Source: an uncultured Ruminococcus sp.
GTDB taxonomy: Bacteria; Bacillota; Clostridia; Oscillospirales; Acutalibacteraceae
Direction of reading: 5' to 3'
Assembly: GCA_902778175.1 (NCBI GenBank)
Contig: CACYWT010000005.1
Location: forward strand, 5,926-69,925
DNA length: 64,000 bases
Shown here: piece after piece, positions 23,564 to 34,475 of the stretch
Layout of the letters: each line of letters opens with the position of its first letter
Numbering within the stretch: the stretch's first letter is position 1
Made by a program: the position numbers and the translations under genes
Notes under the pieces: generated by a model
The model's input: only the letters and a program-made list of their open reading frames with translations
Database searches by the model: none
What the model was told of the DNA's origin: nothing

Positions 23564-23596
23564 AAAAAAACTGCCGCGCTATTGCGGCAGTTTTTT
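23564..23596. terminator. bidirectional intrinsic terminator
   Basis: Stem ctgccgc/gcggcag flanked by aaaaaaa on the left and tttttt on the right. It lies between convergent genes. Confidence 0.8.
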
Positions 23597-23598
23597 CG

Positions 23599-23835
23599 TT
23601 ATTTGAGTGAATCGAGTTTTTTCTGCAGGTCGATCATATGATTACGGCAAGCGGTGATCTCGCCGGTGTATTTATTGAACCATTCAACATCGCGTTCATC
23701 AGGAGTTTCCTGCAGAAGCACCGCCTGAACCAGAGCCGACTGTGATCTTGAACGTTTGCGCTCGATCTCGTCGATCGTCTGGCGGCAGATTTTGATTTCT
23801 TTTTTCAGTTTATGTTTTTCAAAATAGTTACCCAT
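23599..23835 (-). CDS. small coiled-coil protein, unknown function (last gene of the minus-strand operon)
   Basis: 78 aa, charged and heptad-like, with no TM helix. It starts 10 nt after the upstream gene. Confidence 0.55.
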   Translation of the reverse strand: MGNYFEKHKLKKEIKICRQTIDEIERKRSRSQSALVQAVLLQETPDERDVEWFNKYTGEITACRNHMIDLQKKLDSLK

Positions 23836-23845
23836 AGCAAATCCC

Positions 23846-24307
23846 TCAAAATCCTTTCTTGTTAATGGAATCTACGACTTTGGCTGCTTCATCATATCCT
23901 TTGTCGAGATTCTGGCTCATATCTGTAACAGCTGTTCTGATATCTTCAAGAGTATCTTTTTTTTGAATCTGTTCCGGATATTTCATCATGCAGGTCTGCA
24001 GTTCATTGACAGTACGTTTCTGGTCATCAGTCAGACCGGTCATAACGAAGGCAAAGCTGTTTGCACTGCTGTAATCGGAAAGGATCCTGCGGTATCTCAG
24101 CGGAAGATCACCCTCGGCGTCCAGATAGGAATCAATATTGGCTGATGTCTTGATAAGATAATTATTGAACTGTGCGCGATATGTTTCCTGTACCCGATGT
24201 GTTTCGTCGATGTAAAGTCCGATGAAGATCAGAAGAGCGATCAGTGTTATAACAAACAGTACGATCGCGCGGATCATACGACCTTTCATTATTTTTTCCT
24301 GTGTCAC
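23846..24307 (-). CDS. single-pass membrane protein, unknown function
   Basis: 153 aa with an N-terminal TM 'AIVLFVITLIALLIFIGLYI'. Its GTG start overlaps the stop of the upstream 1,016-aa gene (GTGA), which implies translational coupling. Confidence 0.6.
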   Translation of the reverse strand: MTQEKIMKGRMIRAIVLFVITLIALLIFIGLYIDETHRVQETYRAQFNNYLIKTSANIDSYLDAEGDLPLRYRRILSDYSSANSFAFVMTGLTDDQKRTVNELQTCMMKYPEQIQKKDTLEDIRTAVTDMSQNLDKGYDEAAKVVDSINKKGF

Positions 24308-27300
24308 TGTGCGTTCACCTCTTCATCAGACTTATTATCAACATTGCCATCATTATCAGCATTTGCATTTTCTTCGGAGGTATCATCTTCCTCTGAGGTG
24401 TCTTTTCCTTCGGAAGTATCATCATCTCCGGAGGTATCTTTTTCTTCGGAGGTATCATCATCTCCGGAGGTGTCTTTTTCTTCGGAAGTATTATCTTCTC
24501 CGGAAGTATCATCTTCTCCGGGAGGATCCTCACCGGTGTTTTCAGGCTTATAATTTTCTGCAGCAAGCCGTTTCTTTTCGGCTTCTATTGCTTCGCGCAT
24601 ACGTTTTTCATATTTTTCCTTTGCTTCTTTATCTTTGTCCTCAGATGCTTCCTTACGAGCTTGTTTGCCTATCTTTATCATAGATTTCAGCTCATAAAGC
24701 GAGATCAGAGTCAGAGGTATCATTACAAGCAGCAGGAACAGCTTGTGAGTATCGGCAAAGGATCCGAGCCACATATAGAATCCGGACTTACGGACATATA
24801 TACCGAATACATTGGACGGTTTAACGGGTATCTGATCGTTTACGGGATTAGCATCTCCTCTTGTGACGAAGGTTCCGTCTCTGCCGATCCATGCGATTCT
24901 GTGGGTGACAAGCTTGCCCTTGATATCCTCCTGATCGGAATAGAAGGAAATGATATCATCTTTTTTAAGGGTAGCCGGATCACACTTTTTAACTATAATA
25001 TAATCATTAACATGAAGTGTTGATTCCATGCTTCCGGTTTCGACCCTGAGAATACTGTATCCGAAAATATCGACCGGATGACCGATGATCGTGCAGGCAG
25101 TAACATATATAGAGAATACAACAGAAAATCCAAGCAGGAATAAAAGCAGACCGTTAAGCAAACGCTTATACAGCTTTCTGTCTGATAAATCTATCTCATC
25201 ACGCCATGCCTTATACCGTTTTGTCTCGCTTACGAACCAGCGGCGGATGTGTTCAAATATGCTTACATGATATTCTCTGTAGAGAGCGCGCATCTCTCTC
25301 TGTATCTCAGCCTGCTGCTCAGGCGTATACTTTGATTTGTATACCGGCCTTGGCTTGTTTTTGCGGTCTTTCTTGCGCTTGCGCTGGAATTTGCGATCCT
25401 GTATACTACGCATAGTGCGGTACTTGAAAGTCTGCGCATACTTTTTGTAGTATACTTCCATTCTGGTTCGTTTTTCTTTTTCTTTTGCTTTCTTTTCGCG
25501 CTTGTCAATAATTTGCTGACGGCGCTCCTTGAAATCCGGACGGTCCGTGTCTTCCGGTATGATTCCGAAAACCATAGCCAGAATATACCTGATAAGACGA
25601 ATGAGCATCCAGAAAGGATTTCTTGAATATTCGCGGCGGATCTGTTTAAAGGGCTTGCTTTCAAAGTACTTGCGCTCTGCTTTAAGCCGCTGTGCGCGTT
25701 CCGTTTCGGCGCGTTCCTTTTCACGCTGCTGCTGTTCCCGTTTCATACGGGCTGCAACCTCTGCCGGAGATTCGTTTTCGGGAAGTTTCTTTGCTGCGGC
25801 AACCTCCGGGGGAGATTCCTTCGCTTTGATATCGGAAGCAGTACCCAGTTCGGAGCGGACACGTTTCTTTTCTTCTGCGATGCGTATTCGTTCGCGTTCC
25901 TTAGCCTCTTCAGCCTCACGCTGCTTCCGTTCTTCCTCGAGTCTGGCTTTTTCTTCCTCTTCCTTTTTGCGTTTTTCCTCGAGAAGCCGCAGACGTTCCT
26001 GCTCCATACGTTCGCGTTCGCGTTCTGCTTCTTCCTGTTCTCTTCGTTTCTGCTCGAGCATTTCCTGGATAAGCCGTTCCTGTTCGGCTTTTTCCGCTTC
26101 AATGCGTTCAAGCTCAGCCTGACGTTCTGCTTCAATGCGTTCTTCTTCAAGCCGCCTGCGTTCCATTTCCTCGGCAAGTCTTTGTTCTTCCAGTTCCTTT
26201 GCCCTGAGTTCTTCCTGATAGTTTTGTTCTATCTGAATAGCAAGTTCGATCTGCTGAAGTATCTCATCTGCATTTTCGGGGACGGATTGCCTGAGCTGCA
26301 TATCGCTTGTCTGTGTGATATAGCCCGAACCGCCTTTTGACGTAGAGTCAAATCTTGTACTGACATCTTCAAACAGTTTAACTATCTTCGGAGCAACAGG
26401 CTCAAGCTGTCTTACTTCCATCAGTTCCTGATCCGGAGAAACAGAGGATCTGAAAAGCAGCAGATGCAGACCGATCAGTTCATAGAAATCATTAATGAAG
26501 TTTTCATTCGGCTGGACAGCCGAATCCTCAATATTGATCTCATAACCGACTTTATCATAGCTTTCGATATACTGCCAAAGTGTAAGGCAGGCTTTGAGGT
26601 CAACATTTTTCATAATTGCGTTGGTACGCATTACCGGGGGACGGATATATGTGCTGCCGAGTGTCTGGCATAATTCAGACCCCTTATAACCTTCAATGAC
26701 CTTTTTAAGCTTTTCGACTCTCTGCCATATCGTATAGCCGCTCCGGTCCCTGGTTTCAAGACTGTGTTCATTTTCAATATGAACTTCAATCTTCATTTTG
26801 CCGCCGTTGCGGTCGTCGATCGAGGTATTGAAACCGAGTGTGAATACTTCCTCGTCCTTTGACACCTTTGCGAGCTTTTCATAACGCATGGTTATGAAGA
26901 TATAAAGTCTGTCGATGAGCGTATTTACAAATTTATTTTCATATGTCATAAGGCTTTCTTCCTTATGAACATTAAGTATTTTCGACGGAGTTATCTTACC
27001 GGTTTTTTTATCAATGCTTTGTATCAGGTCTGTATGCTGAGCCAGATGCTTTACAGATTCTACGGTAATTTTTTTCGATAGTGCTATAGGAACAATCTCT
27101 TCAACGTCCTCGATCGTTCTTCTCGGATTACGCAGGACATTGTCTACATGAATAAGTCCCTTTTCGATCGCCTCGACCCAGGAAGAGTCAATGACCTTCT
27201 GCATTACAATGCGGTTAAGAGCAAAAGATCCTTCCGTGCCTTTGAGAATGTTCATCAGCGATTTGAATTGCGGATCATCTTTATACAGATCCATTACTTC

Positions 27301-27354
27301 ATTGTGTTCCTGATCATATTCGTCACGGTATGGATTTTTTTCTTCATCGCTCAC
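24304..27354 (-). CDS. fusion protein: McrC/DUF2357-like N-domain, E/R/K-rich long helix, TM, SipW-type (S26, Ser/His) signal peptidase, TM and acidic repeat tail
   Basis: The N-terminal ~310 aa are soluble and carry 'TYENKFVNTLIDRL'. Residues ~365-565 are almost only E/R/K/A/Q/L. A TM helix follows ('LLNGLLLFLLGFSVVFSIYVTACTIIG'). The S26 motifs are 'GSMESTL', 'THRI' and 'RGDANPVND'. A second TM helix is 'LFLLLVMIPLTLISLY'. The tail carries DTS-rich repeats. Confidence 0.7.
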   Translation of the reverse strand: MSDEEKNPYRDEYDQEHNEVMDLYKDDPQFKSLMNILKGTEGSFALNRIVMQKVIDSSWVEAIEKGLIHVDNVLRNPRRTIEDVEEIVPIALSKKITVESVKHLAQHTDLIQSIDKKTGKITPSKILNVHKEESLMTYENKFVNTLIDRLYIFITMRYEKLAKVSKDEEVFTLGFNTSIDDRNGGKMKIEVHIENEHSLETRDRSGYTIWQRVEKLKKVIEGYKGSELCQTLGSTYIRPPVMRTNAIMKNVDLKACLTLWQYIESYDKVGYEINIEDSAVQPNENFINDFYELIGLHLLLFRSSVSPDQELMEVRQLEPVAPKIVKLFEDVSTRFDSTSKGGSGYITQTSDMQLRQSVPENADEILQQIELAIQIEQNYQEELRAKELEEQRLAEEMERRRLEEERIEAERQAELERIEAEKAEQERLIQEMLEQKRREQEEAERERERMEQERLRLLEEKRKKEEEEKARLEEERKQREAEEAKERERIRIAEEKKRVRSELGTASDIKAKESPPEVAAAKKLPENESPAEVAARMKREQQQREKERAETERAQRLKAERKYFESKPFKQIRREYSRNPFWMLIRLIRYILAMVFGIIPEDTDRPDFKERRQQIIDKREKKAKEKEKRTRMEVYYKKYAQTFKYRTMRSIQDRKFQRKRKKDRKNKPRPVYKSKYTPEQQAEIQREMRALYREYHVSIFEHIRRWFVSETKRYKAWRDEIDLSDRKLYKRLLNGLLLFLLGFSVVFSIYVTACTIIGHPVDIFGYSILRVETGSMESTLHVNDYIIVKKCDPATLKKDDIISFYSDQEDIKGKLVTHRIAWIGRDGTFVTRGDANPVNDQIPVKPSNVFGIYVRKSGFYMWLGSFADTHKLFLLLVMIPLTLISLYELKSMIKIGKQARKEASEDKDKEAKEKYEKRMREAIEAEKKRLAAENYKPENTGEDPPGEDDTSGEDNTSEEKDTSGDDDTSEEKDTSGDDDTSEGKDTSEEDDTSEENANADNDGNVDNKSDEEVNAQ
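24355..24543 (-). repeat. in-frame 36-nt tandem repeat encoding (EEKDTSGDDDTS)n acidic tail
   Basis: There are two exact 12-aa units (aa 958-969 and 970-981), flanked by degenerate units. The repeat is visible on the plus strand as ggtatcatcatctccggaggt(a/g)tctttttcttcgga. Confidence 0.85.
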
Positions 27355-27444
27355 TTCATTCTCACCTGCCGATCATTATTATTTCGGGATATATCTCATC
27401 TGTTCACAGCATTAAGCTCAGACAGACAAATATCCCATTGAAAG

Positions 27445-27473
27445 TTTGTCCTGCCCCTTTGGAGCAGGACAAA
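27445..27473 (-). promoter_or_regulatory. intercistronic stem-loop between the McrB-like and McrC-like genes
   Basis: 10-bp stem tttgtcctgc/gcaggacaaa with a 9-nt loop, inside the 149-nt gap. No clear U-run follows on the minus strand. Confidence 0.4.
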
Positions 27474-27503
27474 GCTGAACCTGAAATAATGAGGAAAATA
27501 GCC

Positions 27504-29081
27504 TCAGAATAGTTTTTGCAGTCTTTGAAGGTAAGCGATGGATTCGCCCATTTTATTCTTACCGAAGAGTTTTTGCAGATAAACGCAAAGCTCTTTCAGT
27601 TCTTCACGGAGCATTGCAAGGTTCAGAGATTCAAACTTACGGAAAATTTTTGTAGCGAGCACATAGTCAATACCATCAAGTTCATCGCCGCCGCAGGCAA
27701 CATAAACAGGAACAAACAGTCCCATCTGCTTAAGAATACGGTTACCGAAAGCGACACGGAGCTTTTCAATTACCCACAGGTCGAGCTGATGGATTTTCTT
27801 GAGGTTTTCCTGAGAAATAGGATACATCTTAAAGGCTTCCTCAAACATAGCGTTAAGATGAGAAAAGCTGAGCCGCAGGGGAGGAGTATCCGGAGCTTCA
27901 AATGCGATACCTTTTTCATCAAGGTTGATAGGCTGAGCACGGTCGTAAACCTTATCAGAAATAGCAAATGTGGAGTCGTCGTTATTTGCAGTACCGATAT
28001 ACCATATATTCTGCGGAATATGGATCTTGCCGTGATCGAGCTTGACAGGGTCAGTACTCCATGCATTTGGCACGATATCGAGTTCCCATTCATCTGCATT
28101 GGGCATTTCAAGAATGGAGAGCATTTCTGCGAAATAGTACTCAATACGCGCAATGTTCATTTCGTCGAGGAGTATCAGGTTGACGTCATCATTGTAGCCT
28201 GATGAATAAATACGTTTAAGAACCTCTGTTTCGTTGAAGTTCTTTGTAAATTCGTTGAAGTAACCGAAAAGCTCGGTACGGTCACGCCATGAAGGCTGAA
28301 CAGATGCGATAGTAGTATCGACCTGCAGGAATTTACCGAATGAATAGGGAAGAGATGTTTTACCTGTACCGGAAATACCCTGGAGAATAATAAGCTTTGT
28401 CGAAGCCATACCAGCAAGGAAAAGTCTGATAGTTTTCTGGTCGTAGAACAGGTGCATTCTTGAGCAGGCAAAATTGCGATACCGCTCTACAATACCTTCG
28501 AGAGTGATCTCATTGTCATACTCAGGCGGTATGAAGTTGGAATAGAAATTGTCCACTTCCATGAGCTTTGAGAAACGCCGCTCGGTGGTCTTGACAATAC
28601 CTGCCTCGAGCTCCTGCGGAGCGCCCTCTTCGCCTTCTGCGGGAATACCGTCCGGGGAATAAGTTCCGCCGGAAGCAAGAGAAAGCCTTGCGCTTCCGGG
28701 GACGCCGATCTGAGCGACCTTCATAGCCATGATCTCGTCTTTTTCCTTGACCATTTTTATAACGCGCTGCTGGAGAATAGCGATCTCCTCCAGAAGGTCT
28801 TCATTGCTTACAATGGAATGACGGAAACGGATATATTTCCGTATTGCAAGAATGATGATGAATATGACAAGCAAAAAGATAGCAATGACTATTATGATCG
28901 CCAGAACGGAAAGGATCCATTCCAAAGCGCCGAACTTAGTCGAATATTCCTTGAATAAGTCTACATATTTTCCTATATTGAAAATTTGTTGTATTCCTGC
29001 CCATAATCCGATGAACATCTGCGCAAAGCCCTGCAGTATCTCGGATATGAAGGCGAAAAACCATTTCAAAAAATTATCCAT
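27504..29081 (-). CDS. membrane-anchored McrB-like AAA+ (AAA_5-type) NTPase
   Basis: TM helix 'WILSVLAIIIVIAIFLLVIFIIILAI' at aa ~55-80. Walker A 'GISGTGKT' (nt 28356-28379), Walker B 'LILLDEMN' and 'NIWYIGTANNDDS'. RBS 'aggagga' is present. Confidence 0.7.
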   Translation of the reverse strand: MDNFLKWFFAFISEILQGFAQMFIGLWAGIQQIFNIGKYVDLFKEYSTKFGALEWILSVLAIIIVIAIFLLVIFIIILAIRKYIRFRHSIVSNEDLLEEIAILQQRVIKMVKEKDEIMAMKVAQIGVPGSARLSLASGGTYSPDGIPAEGEEGAPQELEAGIVKTTERRFSKLMEVDNFYSNFIPPEYDNEITLEGIVERYRNFACSRMHLFYDQKTIRLFLAGMASTKLIILQGISGTGKTSLPYSFGKFLQVDTTIASVQPSWRDRTELFGYFNEFTKNFNETEVLKRIYSSGYNDDVNLILLDEMNIARIEYYFAEMLSILEMPNADEWELDIVPNAWSTDPVKLDHGKIHIPQNIWYIGTANNDDSTFAISDKVYDRAQPINLDEKGIAFEAPDTPPLRLSFSHLNAMFEEAFKMYPISQENLKKIHQLDLWVIEKLRVAFGNRILKQMGLFVPVYVACGGDELDGIDYVLATKIFRKFESLNLAMLREELKELCVYLQKLFGKNKMGESIAYLQRLQKLF

Positions 29082-29111
29082 AGCATTTCCTCCTATTGCG
29101 GAGAATAGAGT

Positions 29112-29882
29112 TTATTTTTTATCGTCCTGAGAATCAGATTGTTTTTCTTCTTGTTTTTCTTCGCTCGGAGGAGCTTCTTCCTCCGGCTTTTTTTCCTGAT
29201 CTGTCTTATCGGGTCCCGTTTCATCAGCAGGATTTGTATCTGCTTTGTTTTCAGCCTCTTTTTCCTTTTGTGCAGCAAGGTATTCCTCAATAGCGCGGCG
29301 TTTTATTTCTTCCTCGTCAAGCTGGGGTTCGGGCTGCGGATTCTTTACCTTTATGACAGTAACGATAAATTTGTACAGCTCGAACAGGAAGAACAGAGCC
29401 ATAGGAATAAGTATGCAGACAAAGAAACCTACCTTTGTGCGCAGGAAAGCCATGATATTTCCGGCGCCGGTCAGTTTGATATTAGTCCATTTACCGATAA
29501 GCTCAGCCTGATATGCCGGCAGATCATCGTCGATGGGGTTATTGTCGCCTCGGGTGATAAAGCTGAGGCTGTTGCCGGTATCGTTGATACTTACGATACG
29601 GTGGGTATTTTTAACTTTTTTTCCGTCGATAAGCGTCCAGAATGTGATGACGTCATCGACCTTTAAGCTTTTCGCGTCGTCGATCTGTTTACAGATGATA
29701 AGGTCGCCCTCGTTGAAGGTCGGGCTCATTGACTGAGATTCGACTGTCAGGGGAATGAATCCGAAGATATTCGGAACACCACCGCTGTTTGACGAAGAGA
29801 AAACGAGGATAGTAACAAGCAGCGCCAGAATGACAATTAACCATAGAACTACATTGCCGATAATTTTAAGTGCCTTTTTCAT
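29112..29882 (-). CDS. sipW: signal peptidase I, SipW/archaeal-ER type, with acidic C-terminal tail
   Basis: Architecture is TM, 'SQSMSPTF' (Ser), 'THRI' (His), 'RGDNNPIDD', a second TM and a K/E/D-rich tail. RBS 'aaggaga' is present. Confidence 0.8.
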   Translation of the reverse strand: MKKALKIIGNVVLWLIVILALLVTILVFSSSNSGGVPNIFGFIPLTVESQSMSPTFNEGDLIICKQIDDAKSLKVDDVITFWTLIDGKKVKNTHRIVSINDTGNSLSFITRGDNNPIDDDLPAYQAELIGKWTNIKLTGAGNIMAFLRTKVGFFVCILIPMALFFLFELYKFIVTVIKVKNPQPEPQLDEEEIKRRAIEEYLAAQKEKEAENKADTNPADETGPDKTDQEKKPEEEAPPSEEKQEEKQSDSQDDKK

Positions 29883-29903
29883 GATCAGGTTCTCCTTTAA
29901 TTT

Positions 29904-30707
29904 TTACGTTGATTCAGTTATATGGAAATTCATTCCAAATTTGATGGTTCCACCGACGATATCGTCAATACAGTCGGGGTCATTACCCTCGAGCCATATC
30001 ACGACGGTATATTTGTCTTTTGCTTTTGCTTTAAATCCATCGGCTTTGGTTTTCATTACTATAGTAGAGGAGAGAAATGTTTCGTTGCAGTCGCTTTCCT
30101 TACCGCCGCCGTTGGATTTTGTTTTTCCGTAGACAGTTTTATTGCCGTTTTTATAAACTGCAACACGGATAGCCTCATCGACATTTTTTGTAACATTCTC
30201 GATATTTAGTTCGCCCTCATAAGAAATAGTGTCATCGCCGGAGTTTATCAAATAGAATGTATAGGCGATATAATTATCACTGTTATGGGCGCCGTTGATC
30301 TGGTCTACGTTTGCAGGGATATCATTACCGCTGATATTTGTCATATTATAGACGATATCGGCATTGAGTACGGACTGAGAAATATCGTAGTCGGGAGTTT
30401 CCGATAGGGTAAGACCCTGCTTGACCATATCGTATTTGTCGATACGGACGGTAAAGCTGCCGAATTTGGAGTAGAAGTAAGAAATAGCGTAAGCGGCGGC
30501 TACTACCATGATAAGGATAAGGGTTATAAGAGCGAGGATACGGATAAGGATCTTGTATCGTTTAGTTTCTTTTGCGGTACGCCGCAGTTCAAGGACATCC
30601 CTGATATCGGTATCATTGCTTTTACCTTCTTTATTTTTCTTTTTCTTTTTCTTTTCGTTAGGTTCTTCTTTAGTTTCTTCTTTTACCTCTTTTACCTCAT
30701 CAGCCAC
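29904..30707 (-). CDS. TasA-like beta-sandwich protein with Lys/Glu-rich cytoplasmic N-tail and signal-anchor (TapA-like position)
   Basis: 'AAAYAISYFYSKF' follows the TM helix. 'AIRVAVYKNG' and 'IWLEGNDPDC...IKFGMNF' are shared with the 31881..33077 product. RBS 'ggaggtg' is present. Confidence 0.6.
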   Translation of the reverse strand: MADEVKEVKEETKEEPNEKKKKKKNKEGKSNDTDIRDVLELRRTAKETKRYKILIRILALITLILIMVVAAAYAISYFYSKFGSFTVRIDKYDMVKQGLTLSETPDYDISQSVLNADIVYNMTNISGNDIPANVDQINGAHNSDNYIAYTFYLINSGDDTISYEGELNIENVTKNVDEAIRVAVYKNGNKTVYGKTKSNGGGKESDCNETFLSSTIVMKTKADGFKAKAKDKYTVVIWLEGNDPDCIDDIVGGTIKFGMNFHITEST

Positions 30708-30742
30708 ATGAAAACACCTCCGTTCGTTCAGGATGAATAATA

Positions 30743-30776
30743 TACAGATGTAAAGAATATATATTTACAGTCTGTA
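30743..30776. promoter_or_regulatory. imperfect palindrome 36-69 nt upstream of the operon's first structural gene
   Basis: tacagatgtaaa-N9-tttacagtctgta, matching at 12 of 13 positions with a 1-nt bulge. It could be an operator or a 5'-leader hairpin. Confidence 0.45.
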
Positions 30777-30855
30777 CAAAAGCGAGGATAGATCAAGAAA
30801 AATACGATCAACAATTGTAAATGTATTCACTTAACGAAGAAATATTCATAATAAT

Positions 30856-31596
30856 TTATTCAAGCAGCTCGGAAAGCTGCACATAATCGCCCGAAAGTGG
30901 GCCGGCGCAGTAATTGCAGCCGAATTCATAGAAAGCCTCTGCCTGGGTACTGTTTTGCACGCCGTCAGCGATAGGCTCCATACCGAGGTCGTTAATAAAG
31001 GTTATGATAGAATTAACAGCCTGATCGGTACGTTCCTTTTTACCCACGGAATAGGTAATAGACGGGCTGAGCATAACGTAGTCAACGGAAAGCTCGGAAA
31101 GTCTGATATAGGGGCAGCTTATCTCACCGAAATTTTCGAGGATAATATGGTAACCTCTGCGGCGGAGCCTTGCGGTATTATCTGCGGCGACGGAATCGGA
31201 CTGATAGAGAGTCTGTTCCGGAATTTTAAAGCATATAATGTTAGGGGTAATTTTGCTCTGTTCGCAGATCTTATCAGCGAGGGCGGAAGCCGTGCTGTCC
31301 CTGAGGATACTGAGCGGCATATCAATGCAGATCCAGTTAAAGAAGCGTCCTGATTCTTTCAGATTGCGCAGAGCCTCAGCGAGCTGCAGCAGTTCAAGGT
31401 GGAACAGATCTGAGCTTTTGTTGTTTTGTTCTGCGACAGGGCGGAAAGATTCAGGCATAAGGATACCGAGCCCGGGGGTATTAAGGTGTGTACGCGCGAG
31501 GTAGCAGACAGTTCTGCCGCTTGCGATATCGCGCAGAGGGCGGTAATTAAGCTCAATTGCGCGCAGACCGCCGACGTTAGTACGGGTTTCGGGCAT
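30856..31596 (-). CDS. stand-alone degenerate EAL-domain protein (predicted catalytically inactive)
   Basis: EAL-fold pattern 'YRPL..(x)..GILMPESFRPVAE'. The catalytic motifs are replaced: EAL to 'YLA', DDFG(T/S)G to 'ENFGE', K to M in 'VDYVMLS', EGVE to 'DGVQ' and QG to 'AG'. Confidence 0.7.
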   Translation of the reverse strand: MPETRTNVGGLRAIELNYRPLRDIASGRTVCYLARTHLNTPGLGILMPESFRPVAEQNNKSSDLFHLELLQLAEALRNLKESGRFFNWICIDMPLSILRDSTASALADKICEQSKITPNIICFKIPEQTLYQSDSVAADNTARLRRRGYHIILENFGEISCPYIRLSELSVDYVMLSPSITYSVGKKERTDQAVNSIITFINDLGMEPIADGVQNSTQAEAFYEFGCNYCAGPLSGDYVQLSELLE

Positions 31597-31650
31597 GAGC
31601 GCACACTCCTTTCGGGGGAAAAATACACAAATTTAAAGACATATATAAGT

Positions 31651-31679
31651 ATTCTACCATATATTACTACAAAAGTCAA
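31651..31679 (-). promoter_or_regulatory. sigma-A-type promoter for the EAL gene and operon
   Basis: Minus-strand TTGACT-17 nt-TAGAAT with an extended -10 TG. It lies about 55 nt upstream of the ATG at 31596. Confidence 0.6.
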
Positions 31680-31745
31680 ACCAAAGAGAGGGGTATATGA
31701 AAAAAATTAAAACAATAATTATTTCTGAATTTTCTTATAAATGTA

Positions 31746-31774
31746 TTGACAAAATTATATAAAACTGGTACAAT
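31746..31774 (+). promoter_or_regulatory. near-consensus sigma-A promoter for the TasA-like gene
   Basis: TTGACA-17 nt-TACAAT with an extended -10 TGn. It diverges from the minus-strand promoter about 70 bp away. Confidence 0.65.
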
Positions 31775-31880
31775 ATAATCAATAGTATAGCAGCATTGCG
31801 ACTACGGTGCTTAGTGAGGAGCAAAGCTCCCGACAACTACATTAAACTAACTATATTAATACGAGAAAGGAAAATGCTTT

Positions 31881-33077
31881 ATGAAAAAGACAGAAAACAA
31901 AAAAAGCAGAAGCAGCGCGAAGAAAAAGCTAATACCGGCAACGTGTATGCTTTTGGTTTCCGCTACTATGCTCGCAAGCTCAACGTATGCTTGGTTCACC
32001 ATGAATAAGGAAGTTACTCTTACCGGTATGGAAGTAAAGGCAACAGTTGGTGATTCACTGTTGATTGCAAATTCTACAAAGGGTACAGCTCACGCAGCTG
32101 AAAACACATTTGCAAAGGGAACGAATTTTGCTATTACTGGTATGCTTCAACCTGTGTCAACAGTAAATGCAGCAAACAATTCATACTTTTACACATACGA
32201 TGCAAAGGCGGATGGTAGCAAAGCATCAGATACTGCTCAGATTGCATATACTGCAGTAACATATGGTGAAAATGCAAATGCATACAAGGTTTCTACTGAT
32301 GGTGGTACTAATTATGATTATGATGCATTTGTTGATTATGTTGTAGAGTTGAAGGCCATTAACTCTGATTCAGCTAATGCAAAAGAGCTTAGATTGACTA
32401 ATTTGAACCTTTTATATGATGGAGTAGTTCTTCAGGATCATGCTTATCGTGTAGCTATTTTCCAGCAAGATGGAGATAATTCTTCTAATATTATTAATCC
32501 TACCTACACAGCTATAGCTGATACAGCTGGAGCCAACAATATTTTTGCTTATACAGATTTCGATTATTTCGGAACTGATGACAATGCGGAAGGCGTTGCT
32601 TCAACAACAACTAAGGGAGCGATTGTTCCTGATGTAAATAATGAGGCTTGGACAAAGGTTATTCCTGCAGGAAAAACTGATTACACTAAGTTAACGATCA
32701 GGCTTTGGCTTGAAGGCGAAGATACAGACTGCTATTCATCCAAGTTCCTTACTCTAAGCAAGGAATGGACATTAGATCTTAAGTTTGAGCTTGCTGATGG
32801 AGCTTCAGATACCACAACAACAGCTGCGACTACAGCTATTAATAGCGGAATAAAGGCTTCTGCAACAGATGCTGGTGTAGCTTCACTCTCCAGTCCTCAC
32901 ACAAGTGCTCAGGCAGTTTCTTATCAGTGGTACAAGGATAACCTTGGTGCATTGCCTGATACCGAAGTTTCTGGTCAGACCTCCGGTACTTATTCCGGTA
33001 CGGCTGGAAATGTTTACTGCGTAATCACTACTGAGAGAGGAACCAAGTATAGGACCAATACTATTACAGTTTCGTAA
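31881..33077 (+). CDS. secreted TasA/camelysin-like protein with SipW-cognate-type signal peptide and C-terminal Ig-like domain
   Basis: N-terminus 'KKKLIPATCMLLVSATMLASSTYAWFTMNKE' has the A-x-F motif right after the h-region. 'AYRVAIFQQDG' and 'LWLEGEDTDC...LDLKFEL' are shared with the 29904..30707 product. The C-terminal ~55 aa ('YQWYKDN...GNVYCVITT') look Ig-like. Confidence 0.7.
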   Translation: MKKTENKKSRSSAKKKLIPATCMLLVSATMLASSTYAWFTMNKEVTLTGMEVKATVGDSLLIANSTKGTAHAAENTFAKGTNFAITGMLQPVSTVNAANNSYFYTYDAKADGSKASDTAQIAYTAVTYGENANAYKVSTDGGTNYDYDAFVDYVVELKAINSDSANAKELRLTNLNLLYDGVVLQDHAYRVAIFQQDGDNSSNIINPTYTAIADTAGANNIFAYTDFDYFGTDDNAEGVASTTTKGAIVPDVNNEAWTKVIPAGKTDYTKLTIRLWLEGEDTDCYSSKFLTLSKEWTLDLKFELADGASDTTTTAATTAINSGIKASATDAGVASLSSPHTSAQAVSYQWYKDNLGALPDTEVSGQTSGTYSGTAGNVYCVITTERGTKYRTNTITVS

Positions 33078-33117
33078 TCCAAGCGTAAAACAATAACAAC
33101 TAACTAAACACCCACGT

Positions 33118-33148
33118 CCCCCGGATCACAAGTCCGGGGGATTTTTTT
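33118..33148 (+). terminator. intrinsic terminator
   Basis: Stem cccccgga/tccggggg followed by attttttt. Confidence 0.8.
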
Positions 33149-33241: not shown

Positions 33242-33424
33242 ATGAGTACAAAAGAATTATTGCATAATGCAGTCGATGAAATGACGGAAGATAACAAGAC
33301 GGAAGCTCAGAAAGCATTTGAAGAACTTGAAAGATTAAGAAAGCCTTTTACAACTATAGAAGATGGTGATGAAAAAGAATTGTTCTACAAATACCTTGAA
33401 GAAAAGTACAATAGTCTTGGGTAA
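33242..33424 (+). CDS. small antitoxin-like protein (paralogue of the next gene)
   Basis: 60 aa. It shares the 'MST(K/R)E' start, the 'EKEL..Y..EKY' end and the RBS context aaaag(a)ggggt with 33442..33675. Confidence 0.55.
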   Translation: MSTKELLHNAVDEMTEDNKTEAQKAFEELERLRKPFTTIEDGDEKELFYKYLEEKYNSLG

Positions 33425-33441: not shown

Positions 33442-33675
33442 ATGAGCACAAGAGAAATAGCATACAACATTTTTCAACAGCTTACAGAAGAACAGCTTAA
33501 AGGCTTTATCGCTATGTTTAAGGACTATTTTGTACAAACTCAAAATAACGAACAGTGTGAAATTAATGAACGAAGGGAAATTCTTGAGTCGATTCAAGAG
33601 TTGTTTAGACCAATGCCTGACCTTGATTATGAAAAAGAACTTGAACGATATAGAAAGGAGAAGTATGGCGTATGA
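33442..33675 (+). CDS. putative antitoxin of the PIN toxin
   Basis: 77 aa, acidic. Its stop overlaps the PIN gene start by 4 nt (ATGA). Confidence 0.6.
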   Translation: MSTREIAYNIFQQLTEEQLKGFIAMFKDYFVQTQNNEQCEINERREILESIQELFRPMPDLDYEKELERYRKEKYGV

Positions 33676-34082
33676 AAATTTTAATTGATACGAATGTCAT
33701 ACTTGATCTTATATCTGTCAGAGAGCCATTTGTAAATGATTCCCGAAAAATCATAGAACTGTGTACCGATCAGCAATCCGAGGGTTTTATTGCTGCTCAT
33801 TCCGTTATGAATATGTTCTACATTCTGCGTCATGAACTTCCGTTGCAGGATAGAAGAAAGGTACTGCTCGGTTTTTGTAAATTGCTCACCGTAGTCGGCA
33901 TAGACGAAAAATTGATAATTTCTGCTCTTACAAATGAAGATTTTTCCGATGTTGAGGACTGCTTGCAGATAGAATGTGCCAAAAGCTGCGGCGCACAATA
34001 TATCGTTACAAGAAATATCAAGGATTACACAAACAGCACCGTCCCAGCTATCACACCCGATGAGTTTTTGAAATTGATTTGA
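33672..34082 (+). CDS. PIN-domain (VapC-like) toxin
   Basis: 136 aa. 'MKILIDTNVILD' carries the first acidic PIN residue. Later acidic residues are in 'DFSDVEDCLQ' and 'IVTRNIKD'. Confidence 0.75.
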   Translation: MKILIDTNVILDLISVREPFVNDSRKIIELCTDQQSEGFIAAHSVMNMFYILRHELPLQDRRKVLLGFCKLLTVVGIDEKLIISALTNEDFSDVEDCLQIECAKSCGAQYIVTRNIKDYTNSTVPAITPDEFLKLI

Positions 34083-34090
34083 TACCCCCA

Positions 34091-34125
34091 CCCCGTCAGG
34101 CTCCGGCTTGACGGGGTGGTTTTTA
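34091..34125 (+). terminator. intrinsic terminator; includes the right copy of the direct repeat (34112-34124)
   Basis: Stem ccccgtca/tgacgggg followed by tggttttta. Confidence 0.65.
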
Positions 34126-34445: not shown

Positions 34446-34475
34446 TTGACAATCAGCATCATTTTATACTATAAT
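34446..34475 (+). promoter_or_regulatory. candidate promoter of the giant adhesin gene
   Basis: TTGACA-18 nt-TATAAT in a ~430-bp AT-rich spacer. Confidence 0.45.

Follow-up and report, generated by a model that had tools for sequence, protein, structure and literature searches.

Genes and signals at the locus

The locus described here lies in a 64,000-nucleotide (nt) stretch of DNA (hereafter, the window) from an uncultured Ruminococcus sp. (assembly GCA_902778175.1, contig CACYWT010000005.1). It comprises seven consecutive minus-strand genes, which encode an EAL-fold protein, a membrane-anchored protein of 267 amino acids (aa), a SipW-type signal peptidase (SipW1), an McrB-like AAA+ NTPase, a protein in which the McrC domain DUF2357 is fused to a second SipW-type peptidase (SipW2), and two small proteins of 153 and 78 aa, together with a divergent gene for a secreted protein of 398 aa. 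We present evidence that this locus is one widely conserved operon of gut and rumen Clostridia and that, as judged from its genes, it matches the architecture of the CoCoPALM systems, a class that has already been named and whose function is uncharacterised. The function that we consider most likely is the assembly of surface fibres gated by nucleoside triphosphate (NTP) and cyclic di-GMP (c-di-GMP). The eight open reading frames (ORFs) proposed in the initial annotation of this DNA were all confirmed, including that of the 398-aa protein on the plus strand, and are listed below with the signals that surround them.

30856-31596, minus strand: EAL gene, first gene of the operon, encoding a 246-aa stand-alone EAL-fold protein (Pfam EAL, 123 bits)
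29904-30707, minus strand: gene of the 267-aa protein, with a transmembrane helix at aa 53-71 and a beta-rich outside domain
29112-29882, minus strand: SipW1 gene, encoding a signal peptidase I of the endoplasmic reticulum (ER)/archaeal type (TIGR02228, 97 bits)
27504-29081, minus strand: gene of the McrB-like AAA+ NTPase, 525 aa (matches to McrB structures and to PDC-M26A)
24304-27354, minus strand: DUF2357-SipW2 fusion gene, 1016 aa (PF09823, 34.7 bits; TIGR02228, 62 bits)
23846-24307, minus strand: gene of the 153-aa protein, with an N-terminal transmembrane helix at aa 15-33
23599-23835, minus strand: gene of the 78-aa soluble helical protein, last gene of the operon
31881-33077, plus strand: gene of the 398-aa secreted beta-sandwich protein, divergent from the operon
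31651-31679, minus strand: promoter-like site of the seven-gene operon, TTGACT-17-TAGAAT with TG, upstream of the EAL start at 31596
31746-31774, plus strand: promoter-like site of the 398-aa gene, TTGACA-17-TACAAT with TG, 11/12 matches
23565-23596, both strands: bidirectional terminator-like hairpin, stem of 14 bp flanked by an A-run and a T-run on opposite sides
33116-33142, plus strand: terminator-like hairpin 3' of the 398-aa gene, 11-bp stem with seven G-C pairs and a T-run

The layout is compact. From the EAL gene to the 78-aa gene, the intergenic distances calculated from the coordinates are, in order, 148, 21, 30 and 149 nt, then an overlap of 4 nt (GTGA) and lastly 10 nt. A Shine-Dalgarno-like sequence precedes every start codon, in agreement with the good ribosome-binding sites that had been proposed. 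The short gaps and the single GTGA overlap were also borne out, but two gaps are of about 149 nt, one between the EAL and 267-aa genes (148 nt) and one between the NTPase and fusion genes (149 nt), and only one of them had been listed. The bidirectional terminator expected to close the operon was recovered by our scan as the hairpin AAAAAACTGCCGCG-CTAT-TGCGGCAGTTTTTT (23565-23596), which ends both the operon and a convergent GGDEF gene. Divergent extended -10 promoters had been proposed as well. The two sites are present, with 67 bp between their -35 boxes, but the number of promoter-like sites in the region was no higher than in shuffled sequences and they are therefore consensus matches only. 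A leader of about 100 nt (31775-31880) separates the promoter-like site of the 398-aa gene from its start codon. Neither this leader nor the whole window matched any Rfam family at gathering thresholds, and a c-di-GMP riboswitch or other RNA family in the leader was discarded, the sole match being CPEB3 at E=0.17, which is chance.

Conservation of the gene block across Clostridia

The co-conservation of the block was examined by scanning each GTDB species, represented by a single genome, with the NTPase alignment as query. NTPase relatives were present in at least 383 species genomes, and 80 loci were fetched, from Ruminococcus (including R. flavefaciens MC2020 and Y1), Eubacterium ruminantium, Acutalibacteraceae and Christensenellales-like metagenome-assembled genomes, among others. 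Throughout these 80 species-level loci the order was EAL, 267-aa protein, (398-like protein), SipW1, NTPase, DUF2357, SipW2, 153-aa protein and 78-aa protein, and a neighbourhood comparison found the same gene string around DUF2357-domain homologues. Components were counted by ORF calling and BLASTP in those 47 loci whose flanks reach at least 3.5 kb upstream and 5.5 kb downstream, with the following results.

DUF2357: 47/47 loci
SipW2: 47/47 loci
SipW1: 46/47 loci
267-aa protein: 46/47 loci
Small upstream EAL: 41/47 loci
398-like protein: 35/47 loci
78-aa protein: 30/47 loci
153-aa protein: 28/47 loci at the BLAST level, always 3' of SipW2

All counted components were on the strand of the NTPase, save for some divergent 398-like genes, which is also the arrangement in the window; in more distant lineages, 398-like genes belong to the operon itself and lie between the 267-aa gene and SipW1. 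DUF2357 and SipW2 are encoded by separate, adjacent genes in most lineages, and the fusion of the two (973-1053 aa) was seen again in 13 other species loci of the Ruminococcus group, among them those of R. flavefaciens MC2020 and Y1. This recurrence shows that the fusion in the window is genuine, as the initial annotation had held; as a Rosetta-stone argument from sequence, the fusion indicates a physical link between the two proteins in their work. Since the gene order is kept in 80 species-level loci, the juxtaposition is more than chance, and the proposal of a single co-conserved unit is upheld by the comparison.

These data bear directly on the simplest alternative, namely that an ordinary sipW-substrate operon, an unrelated McrBC pair and an EAL gene have come to lie side by side by accident. 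The two gaps of about 149 nt could indeed hold internal promoters. However, the identical order and strand seen in each of the 47 informative loci, the fusion of DUF2357 to SipW and the fact that both the NTPase and the McrC-like protein are membrane-tethered speak against such an accident, which we regard as extremely improbable; synteny and gene fusion together effectively refute it.

Two small proteins are encoded at the 3' end of the operon. The 153-aa protein has a helical domain, predicted to lie outside, after its N-terminal transmembrane helix, and a conserved KYPEQ...DKGY motif was apparent in the alignment. The 78-aa protein has no transmembrane helix and is very strongly conserved, with 71-92% identity within the Ruminococcus/Lachnospiraceae group and 43-54% with distant loci. 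Profile searches of the PDB found no significant relative of either.

SipW-type peptidases

Both peptidases exceeded the cut-off of 51.85 bits for TIGR02228 (SipW1, 97 bits; SipW2, 62 bits). With NF046067, the equivalog model of Bacillus SipW, they scored 112 and 70 bits, respectively, under the cut-off of 190, so that they are SipW-type peptidases and not orthologues of Bacillus SipW. SipW1 has N- and C-terminal transmembrane helices and a charged cytoplasmic tail, and we also observed that its C-terminus is a long, charged stretch of low complexity. Its catalytic triad is well conserved in 86 homologues, Ser51 and His94 being invariant and Asp113 present in 83, and that of SipW2 likewise (Ser and His in 63/63 homologues, Asp in 60/63), so that the Asp is conserved at 95-97% across both paralogues. 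Both active sites are predicted to face outward.

McrB-like NTPase and the DUF2357-SipW2 fusion

The identification of the NTPase as McrB-like proved sound. In profile searches it matched the E. coli McrB structure 6hz4 with E=5.7e-5 over 173 residues that include Walker A and Walker B, and the McrB structures 6hz4, 6ut6 and 7vsr as a group with E=6e-5 to 1.4e-4. The motifs GISGTGKT (Walker A), LDEMN (Walker B) and NNDD were invariant in 78/78 homologues. NNDD (aa 366-369) can be read as NxD followed by D or as NxxD, and the ungapped HMMER alignment to NTAD of the E. coli protein fits both readings. The N-terminus is a membrane anchor, with a transmembrane helix at aa 62-80 followed by a conserved helical, short coiled-coil-like stretch. 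Homology of this N-terminus to FtsB/DivIC went undetected by Pfam, the first 100 aa giving no FtsB/DivIC match.

In the fusion protein, the DUF2357 domain, which is the N-terminal domain of McrC, was recognised by PF09823 at aa 70-169 once the low-complexity middle of the protein had been removed (34.7 bits against a cut-off of 23.3). It is followed by an E/R/K-rich helix, then by a hydrophobic helix at aa 581-599 and a basic linker, after which come the SipW2 peptidase (aa 737-886, nt 24697-25146), a C-terminal transmembrane helix and an acidic repeat tail. The E/R/K-rich stretch (aa ~375-500, nt 25855-26232) comprises about 125 residues, almost all of them E, R, K, A, L or Q. Its composition suggests an ER/K single alpha-helix or else a coiled coil, which could serve as a rigid spacer, some 19 nm long, between the membrane and the DUF2357 domain. 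The helix at aa 581-599 is hydrophobic and contains arginine, and is probably membrane-associated rather than membrane-spanning. Domain searches, including Pfam, found no nuclease domain in the 1016 aa. As a separate observation, the 3' end of the gene carries an 18/36-nt tandem repeat (24366-24532, about 4.6-8.7 copies) which encodes the acidic D/E-T-S repeat tail (DDTSGEDNTSEEKDTSGDDDTSEEK...).

Hydropathy and charge distribution (positive-inside rule) place the NTPase, the DUF2357 domain, the E/R/K-rich helix and basic linker of the fusion, and the EAL and 78-aa proteins in the cytoplasm. The two peptidase domains are placed outside, together with the 267-aa protein's ectodomain and the C-terminal domain of the 153-aa protein. 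Two features of canonical McrBC were not found here, the N-terminus of the NTPase being a membrane anchor and the fusion protein being without a detected PD-(D/E)xK nuclease.

The NTPase also matched the PADLOC phage-defence candidate PDC-M26A (2.5e-37, 126.8 bits). Quite apart from the question of function, we note that a defence annotation pipeline might flag part of this operon, which does not look like a defence system, through that match. The similarity raises the alternative that the locus is an McrBC-derived conflict or defence system, in which the NTPase would sense an invader and the peptidases and secreted proteins would be the effectors, for instance by remodelling the surface against phage adsorption. 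Besides the PDC-M26A match itself, the grouping of the NTPase with the CoCoNuT-like GTPases is in favour of it, since these are predicted type IV restriction systems (Bell, Makarova, Wolf and Koonin, eLife 2024, PMC11090510). Domain searches, on the other hand, disclosed no nuclease or other toxic effector domain, and the locus is associated with c-di-GMP genes and surface proteins, not with defence islands. Defence systems tend to be patchier and faster-evolving. Here, the NTPase is unusually conserved (identities of 77-80% among Ruminococcus species and of 52-59% across the Clostridia), and the gene order is fixed in at least 47 species belonging to several families of Clostridia. We therefore consider a defence role very unlikely.

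Secreted proteins of the locus

The leader of the 398-aa protein ends in TYAWFT and is followed by a conserved N-terminal segment, a core with the motif REGxDxxC (WLEGEDTDC here) and a C-terminal immunoglobulin-like domain. The 267-aa protein has a charged cytoplasmic N-terminus, its transmembrane helix and a beta-rich outside domain that ends in WLEGNDPDC. Homology between the two families extends over the C-terminal half of each (hhalign probability 97.7%, E=2.3e-12), and both have the core E-G-x-D-x-x-C, usually within W-L-E-G, with an invariant Gly and a nearly invariant Cys. They differ in their evolution. The 267-aa family is conserved, with one copy per locus and identities of 60-78% in the Ruminococcus group and 33-48% in distant Clostridia, whereas the 398-aa family evolves fast (21-35% identity) except for the leader and the approximately 20 residues after it (AWFTMNxxVxxTG). 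More than 1388 homologues of the 398-aa protein were found, none with a Pfam family in the core, and the 267-aa protein likewise matched no Pfam family.

Both proteins had been labelled TasA-like, a label that found no confirmation. Pfam Peptidase_M73 gave no match at E<=0.1 among 20 and 24 members of the two families nor in the proteins of the window, and profile searches of PDB sequences with the two families did not find TasA. The AlphaFold2 models were confident and beta-rich, with a pLDDT (predicted local distance difference test) score of 83.5 for the full-length 398-aa protein and, for the core by itself, a pLDDT of 84.3 and a predicted TM-score (pTM) of 0.86. With the full-length and core models, Foldseek gave no match at E<=1e-3. 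TasA itself reached a TM-score of at most 0.27, the TasA fibre 8aur lying at 0.24-0.26 with a probability of 0.21-0.23, and archaeal bundling pili, the Saci_0406 thread, CS20, EcpA and type 1 pilins appeared at TM-scores of 0.2-0.4, the best pilin-type matches (at most 0.39) being interleaved with lectins and carbohydrate-binding modules (CBMs). Such low scores in confident models denote a generic beta-sandwich only. Homology to TasA is accordingly not demonstrable for either protein, none of the Pfam, NCBIfam, PDB profile and Foldseek searches supporting membership. A signal peptide of the SipW-cognate type (NCBIfam TIGR04088) had also been attributed to the 398-aa protein, and this too found no support: the leaders alone matched nothing in NCBIfam even at E<=10 and hence no SipW-cognate signal model of that library. 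By eye, the aromatic-rich TYAWFT at the end of the leader resembles the TasA leader. We conclude that the 398-aa and 267-aa proteins are SipW-associated beta-sandwich proteins that form a family of their own, the former being the candidate major fibre subunit and the latter a candidate membrane anchor or nucleator.

The leader of the 398-aa protein is class-specific, consisting of a hydrophobic region followed by AW[F/L/Y]. In the window it was found on the 398-aa protein only. Relatives carry further genes with the same leader beside the operon, for proteins that range from 219 to 2047 aa and fall into small (219-422 aa) and large (580-2047 aa) ones, the latter at loci L021, L044, L057, L067, L068, L074, L075 and L078 (cluster 11) and L049, L059, L066 and L081 (cluster 16). 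These sets of proteins with a common leader resemble a combination of major and minor subunits plus adhesins. The shared leader suggests that the large proteins may be processed by the same peptidases, or built in as adhesins.

The large proteins also argue for an alternative without any fibre, in which the SipW peptidases and the NTPase would form a maturation or display system that processes proteins with AW[FLY] leaders, very large adhesins included, and helps them singly to cross or attach to the envelope, the 398-aa protein then being a lectin- or adhesin-like surface protein. Large same-leader proteins (580-2047 aa) lie beside the operon in at least 13 loci, the best Foldseek matches of the core include lectin, flocculin and CBM32 folds besides pilins, and homology to TasA was not found, all of which agree with display. 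Against it, the conserved segment that cleavage would expose has an alternating pattern, recurs in several paralogues and comes out disordered in the model of the monomer, which fits strand exchange better, and the combination of one anchor with variable subunits resembles pilus operons. On these grounds we hold display without a fibre to be plausible but less likely than a fibre.

EAL-like protein and the c-di-GMP neighbourhood

The EAL domain had been described as degenerate, and the alignment with the active phosphodiesterase TBD1265 (2r6o) agrees. EAL is replaced by LAR, R by H, N by P, DDFG by ENFG, K by M, EGIE by DGVQ and QG by AG, so that eight of the nine catalytic or metal positions checked (the set E of EAL, N, E, DD, K, E and Q) are substituted, and the checked positions are unconserved across 21 aligned family members. 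Having lost these residues, the protein is not a phosphodiesterase, and from its sequence we take it for a catalytically dead EAL domain. The residues that the family does conserve (N39, G44, C122, G148, G157, P162, D172 and A210) are not classic c-di-GMP contacts.

A candidate role as c-di-GMP receptor comes from the c-di-GMP enzymes encoded in or beside the operon. The three c-di-GMP turnover genes said to adjoin it in the window were confirmed by their domains as PAS-GGDEF-EAL, transmembrane-GGDEF and Cache-GGDEF. In distant lineages, large EAL-containing genes (755-841 aa) lie at the 3' end of the operon (L044, L048, L052, L053, L060, L070-L073, L075 and L079), and the five that were scanned with Pfam encode canonical GGDEF-EAL proteins (EAL, 183-227 bits). 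At L066 and L081, HD_5-EAL proteins (441-448 aa; EAL, 172-177 bits) take the place of the small EAL at the 5' end. The presence of canonical GGDEF-EAL and HD-EAL proteins in the operons of other lineages independently reinforces the connection with c-di-GMP, and we regard the contextual link as strong, as far as gene neighbourhood can indicate.

Proposed mechanism

On balance we favour the view that this is a membrane machine of the CoCoPALM type for the processing of a dedicated set of secreted proteins, which it probably polymerises or displays under cytoplasmic nucleotide control. The idea of a fibre arises because of the operon logic, the conserved and disordered N-terminal strand and the multiple paralogues that share one leader. 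As to the strand, residues 34-53 of the 398-aa protein are the family's best-conserved part and yet have a pLDDT below 50, and a conserved post-leader segment that is disordered in an otherwise confident model may be taken as a hint of donor-strand exchange.

In the mechanism that we propose, cleavage by SipW would expose the conserved N-terminal segment of the 398-aa protein, which would act as a donor strand and chain the subunits into a fibre, and the 267-aa paralogue would nucleate or anchor this fibre, by analogy with TapA. On the cytoplasmic side, the DUF2357 domain would dock into a hexameric NTPase and stimulate hydrolysis, as in McrBC. The resulting conformational change could pass along the E/R/K-rich helix and the membrane segments to the outward SipW2 and assembly site, where it would gate or drive both processing and passage of the product across the cell wall. 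Finally, the EAL-like protein would link assembly to c-di-GMP, either through its status or through the cyclases and phosphodiesterases encoded nearby. Taken to its full extent, this would amount to a third nucleotide-powered machine for surface fibres in monoderms, distinct from type IV and sortase pili. In it, a repurposed McrBC GTPase ring would sit on an McrC-derived shaft with a signal peptidase physically attached; cytoplasmic NTP hydrolysis and c-di-GMP status would thereby be coupled to the polymerisation, by donor strand and triggered by cleavage, of a hitherto unclassified subunit family outside the membrane. We put forward this stronger version tentatively, as possible rather than probable.

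Several observations weigh against fibre assembly. No fibre has been seen, and the literature that was searched contains no test of the system. Homology to TasA was looked for and not found, and the pilin matches are weak (TM-score at most 0.39) and mixed with lectins and CBMs, so that polymerisation rests on analogy. The NTPase has its closest relatives among GTPases for which a role in restriction or defence is predicted, and the window is without the minor-subunit genes that relatives carry. Moreover, the EAL family conserves residues other than the usual contacts with c-di-GMP, so that the nucleotide may not be bound.

If fibre assembly is nevertheless correct, a motor of restriction enzymes would have been recruited to build or gate a surface structure in hundreds of gut and rumen Clostridia, fibre-degrading Ruminococcus included. 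It would represent a new assembly principle for surface filaments of Gram-positive bacteria, give a function to a large protein family without a Pfam entry and tie c-di-GMP signalling in Clostridia to a concrete output. The question is directly testable in culturable carriers such as R. flavefaciens MC2020 and Y1 and Eubacterium ruminantium ATCC 17233.

Neighbouring genes

Downstream of the 398-aa gene, the window contains a toxin-antitoxin group and a giant surface protein.

33242-33424 and 33442-33675: two similar-looking small antitoxin-like ORFs, 5' of the PIN toxin gene
33672-34082: PIN-domain toxin gene (PF13470, 70 bits)
34557-55046: gene of a 6829-aa giant protein with Cna_B/SpaA repeats, an ordinary signal peptide and no obvious C-terminal sorting motif

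The toxin-antitoxin group is bracketed by the terminator-like hairpins at 33116-33142 and 34088-34119. It stands 3' of the 398-aa gene, a position at which the closest relatives (L001 and L040) have three minor-subunit-like genes. A giant adhesin had been placed immediately downstream of the locus; a giant Cna_B/SpaA protein is indeed there, but it is a separate unit, unrelated to the giants of other loci. It has its own perfect sigma-70-like site (12/12, 34446-34475) and is set apart from the locus by terminators and the toxin-antitoxin pair. A tblastn search of the window with the giant and minor-subunit proteins of other loci yielded no match, nor did BLASTP with the ends of the window's giant against 85 loci. 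Its promoter-like site, the upstream terminators and the lack of homology to the other giants led us to reject it as a core part of the system. As the giant of the window is unlike those of other Ruminococcus loci at the BLAST level, unrelated giant surface proteins appear to recur beside these loci.

Comparison with known systems

A fibre or pilus system that depends on SipW and includes an NTPase of the McrBC type had been suggested for this DNA. In outline the suggestion is largely correct, though too specific about TasA and the giant adhesin. It agrees with CoCoPALM, and the class is thus not new to the literature. Bell et al. (PMC11090510) describe CoCoPALM, in one paragraph that defers the full description, as a large clade of McrB GTPases with an NxD motif, fused to an FtsB-like transmembrane and coiled-coil domain, and predict pilus assembly for it. 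Our search of the literature found no later paper on CoCoPALM, none on SipW, McrB and pili, and no experimental study. Measured against that paragraph, the window has an McrB-like GTPase domain with an N-terminal transmembrane and coiled-coil extension and an NNDD motif compatible with the clade's NxD(D/E), a homologue of McrC (DUF2357) that has no nuclease and whose long E/R/K-rich region is helical or coiled-coil, and adjacent signal peptidase genes, two SipW genes flanking the NTPase. The same paragraph makes no mention of an EAL first gene, two SipW paralogues, substrates with AW[FLY] leaders and an E-G-x-D-x-x-C core, 153-aa and 78-aa genes or a DUF2357-SipW fusion.

With E. coli McrBC (6hz4, 6ut6 and 7vsr) the locus shares an AAA+ core with Walker A, Walker B and N..D motifs and a DUF2357 partner encoded directly downstream. 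In contrast, the DNA-binding N-domain of McrB is replaced here by a membrane anchor and the PD-(D/E)xK nuclease of McrC by an E/R/K-rich helix and a signal peptidase, and there is no sign of nucleic-acid targeting in the window system.

Degenerate EAL domains may or may not retain their ligand, LapD and FimX being c-di-GMP receptors and YdiV a protein that does not bind c-di-GMP. The EAL protein of the window resembles these three in its fold, in the loss of the catalytic residues and in being encoded with a system that appears to build a surface structure; it differs from them in being a stand-alone domain of 246 aa and in conserving residues other than the classic ligand contacts.

The tapA-sipW-tasA operon of Bacillus subtilis builds fibres of TasA by donor-strand exchange (8aur). 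As in that operon, a dedicated ER-type SipW is encoded here by the side of a secreted beta-sandwich substrate and a second, related accessory protein, and assembly through an N-terminal strand is proposed, in our case from genes and models. The substrates in the window, however, have no detectable homology to TasA, and there are two peptidases. Moreover, an NTPase, an McrC-like protein and an EAL-fold protein, none of which is found in the Bacillus operon, are integral parts of the locus described here.

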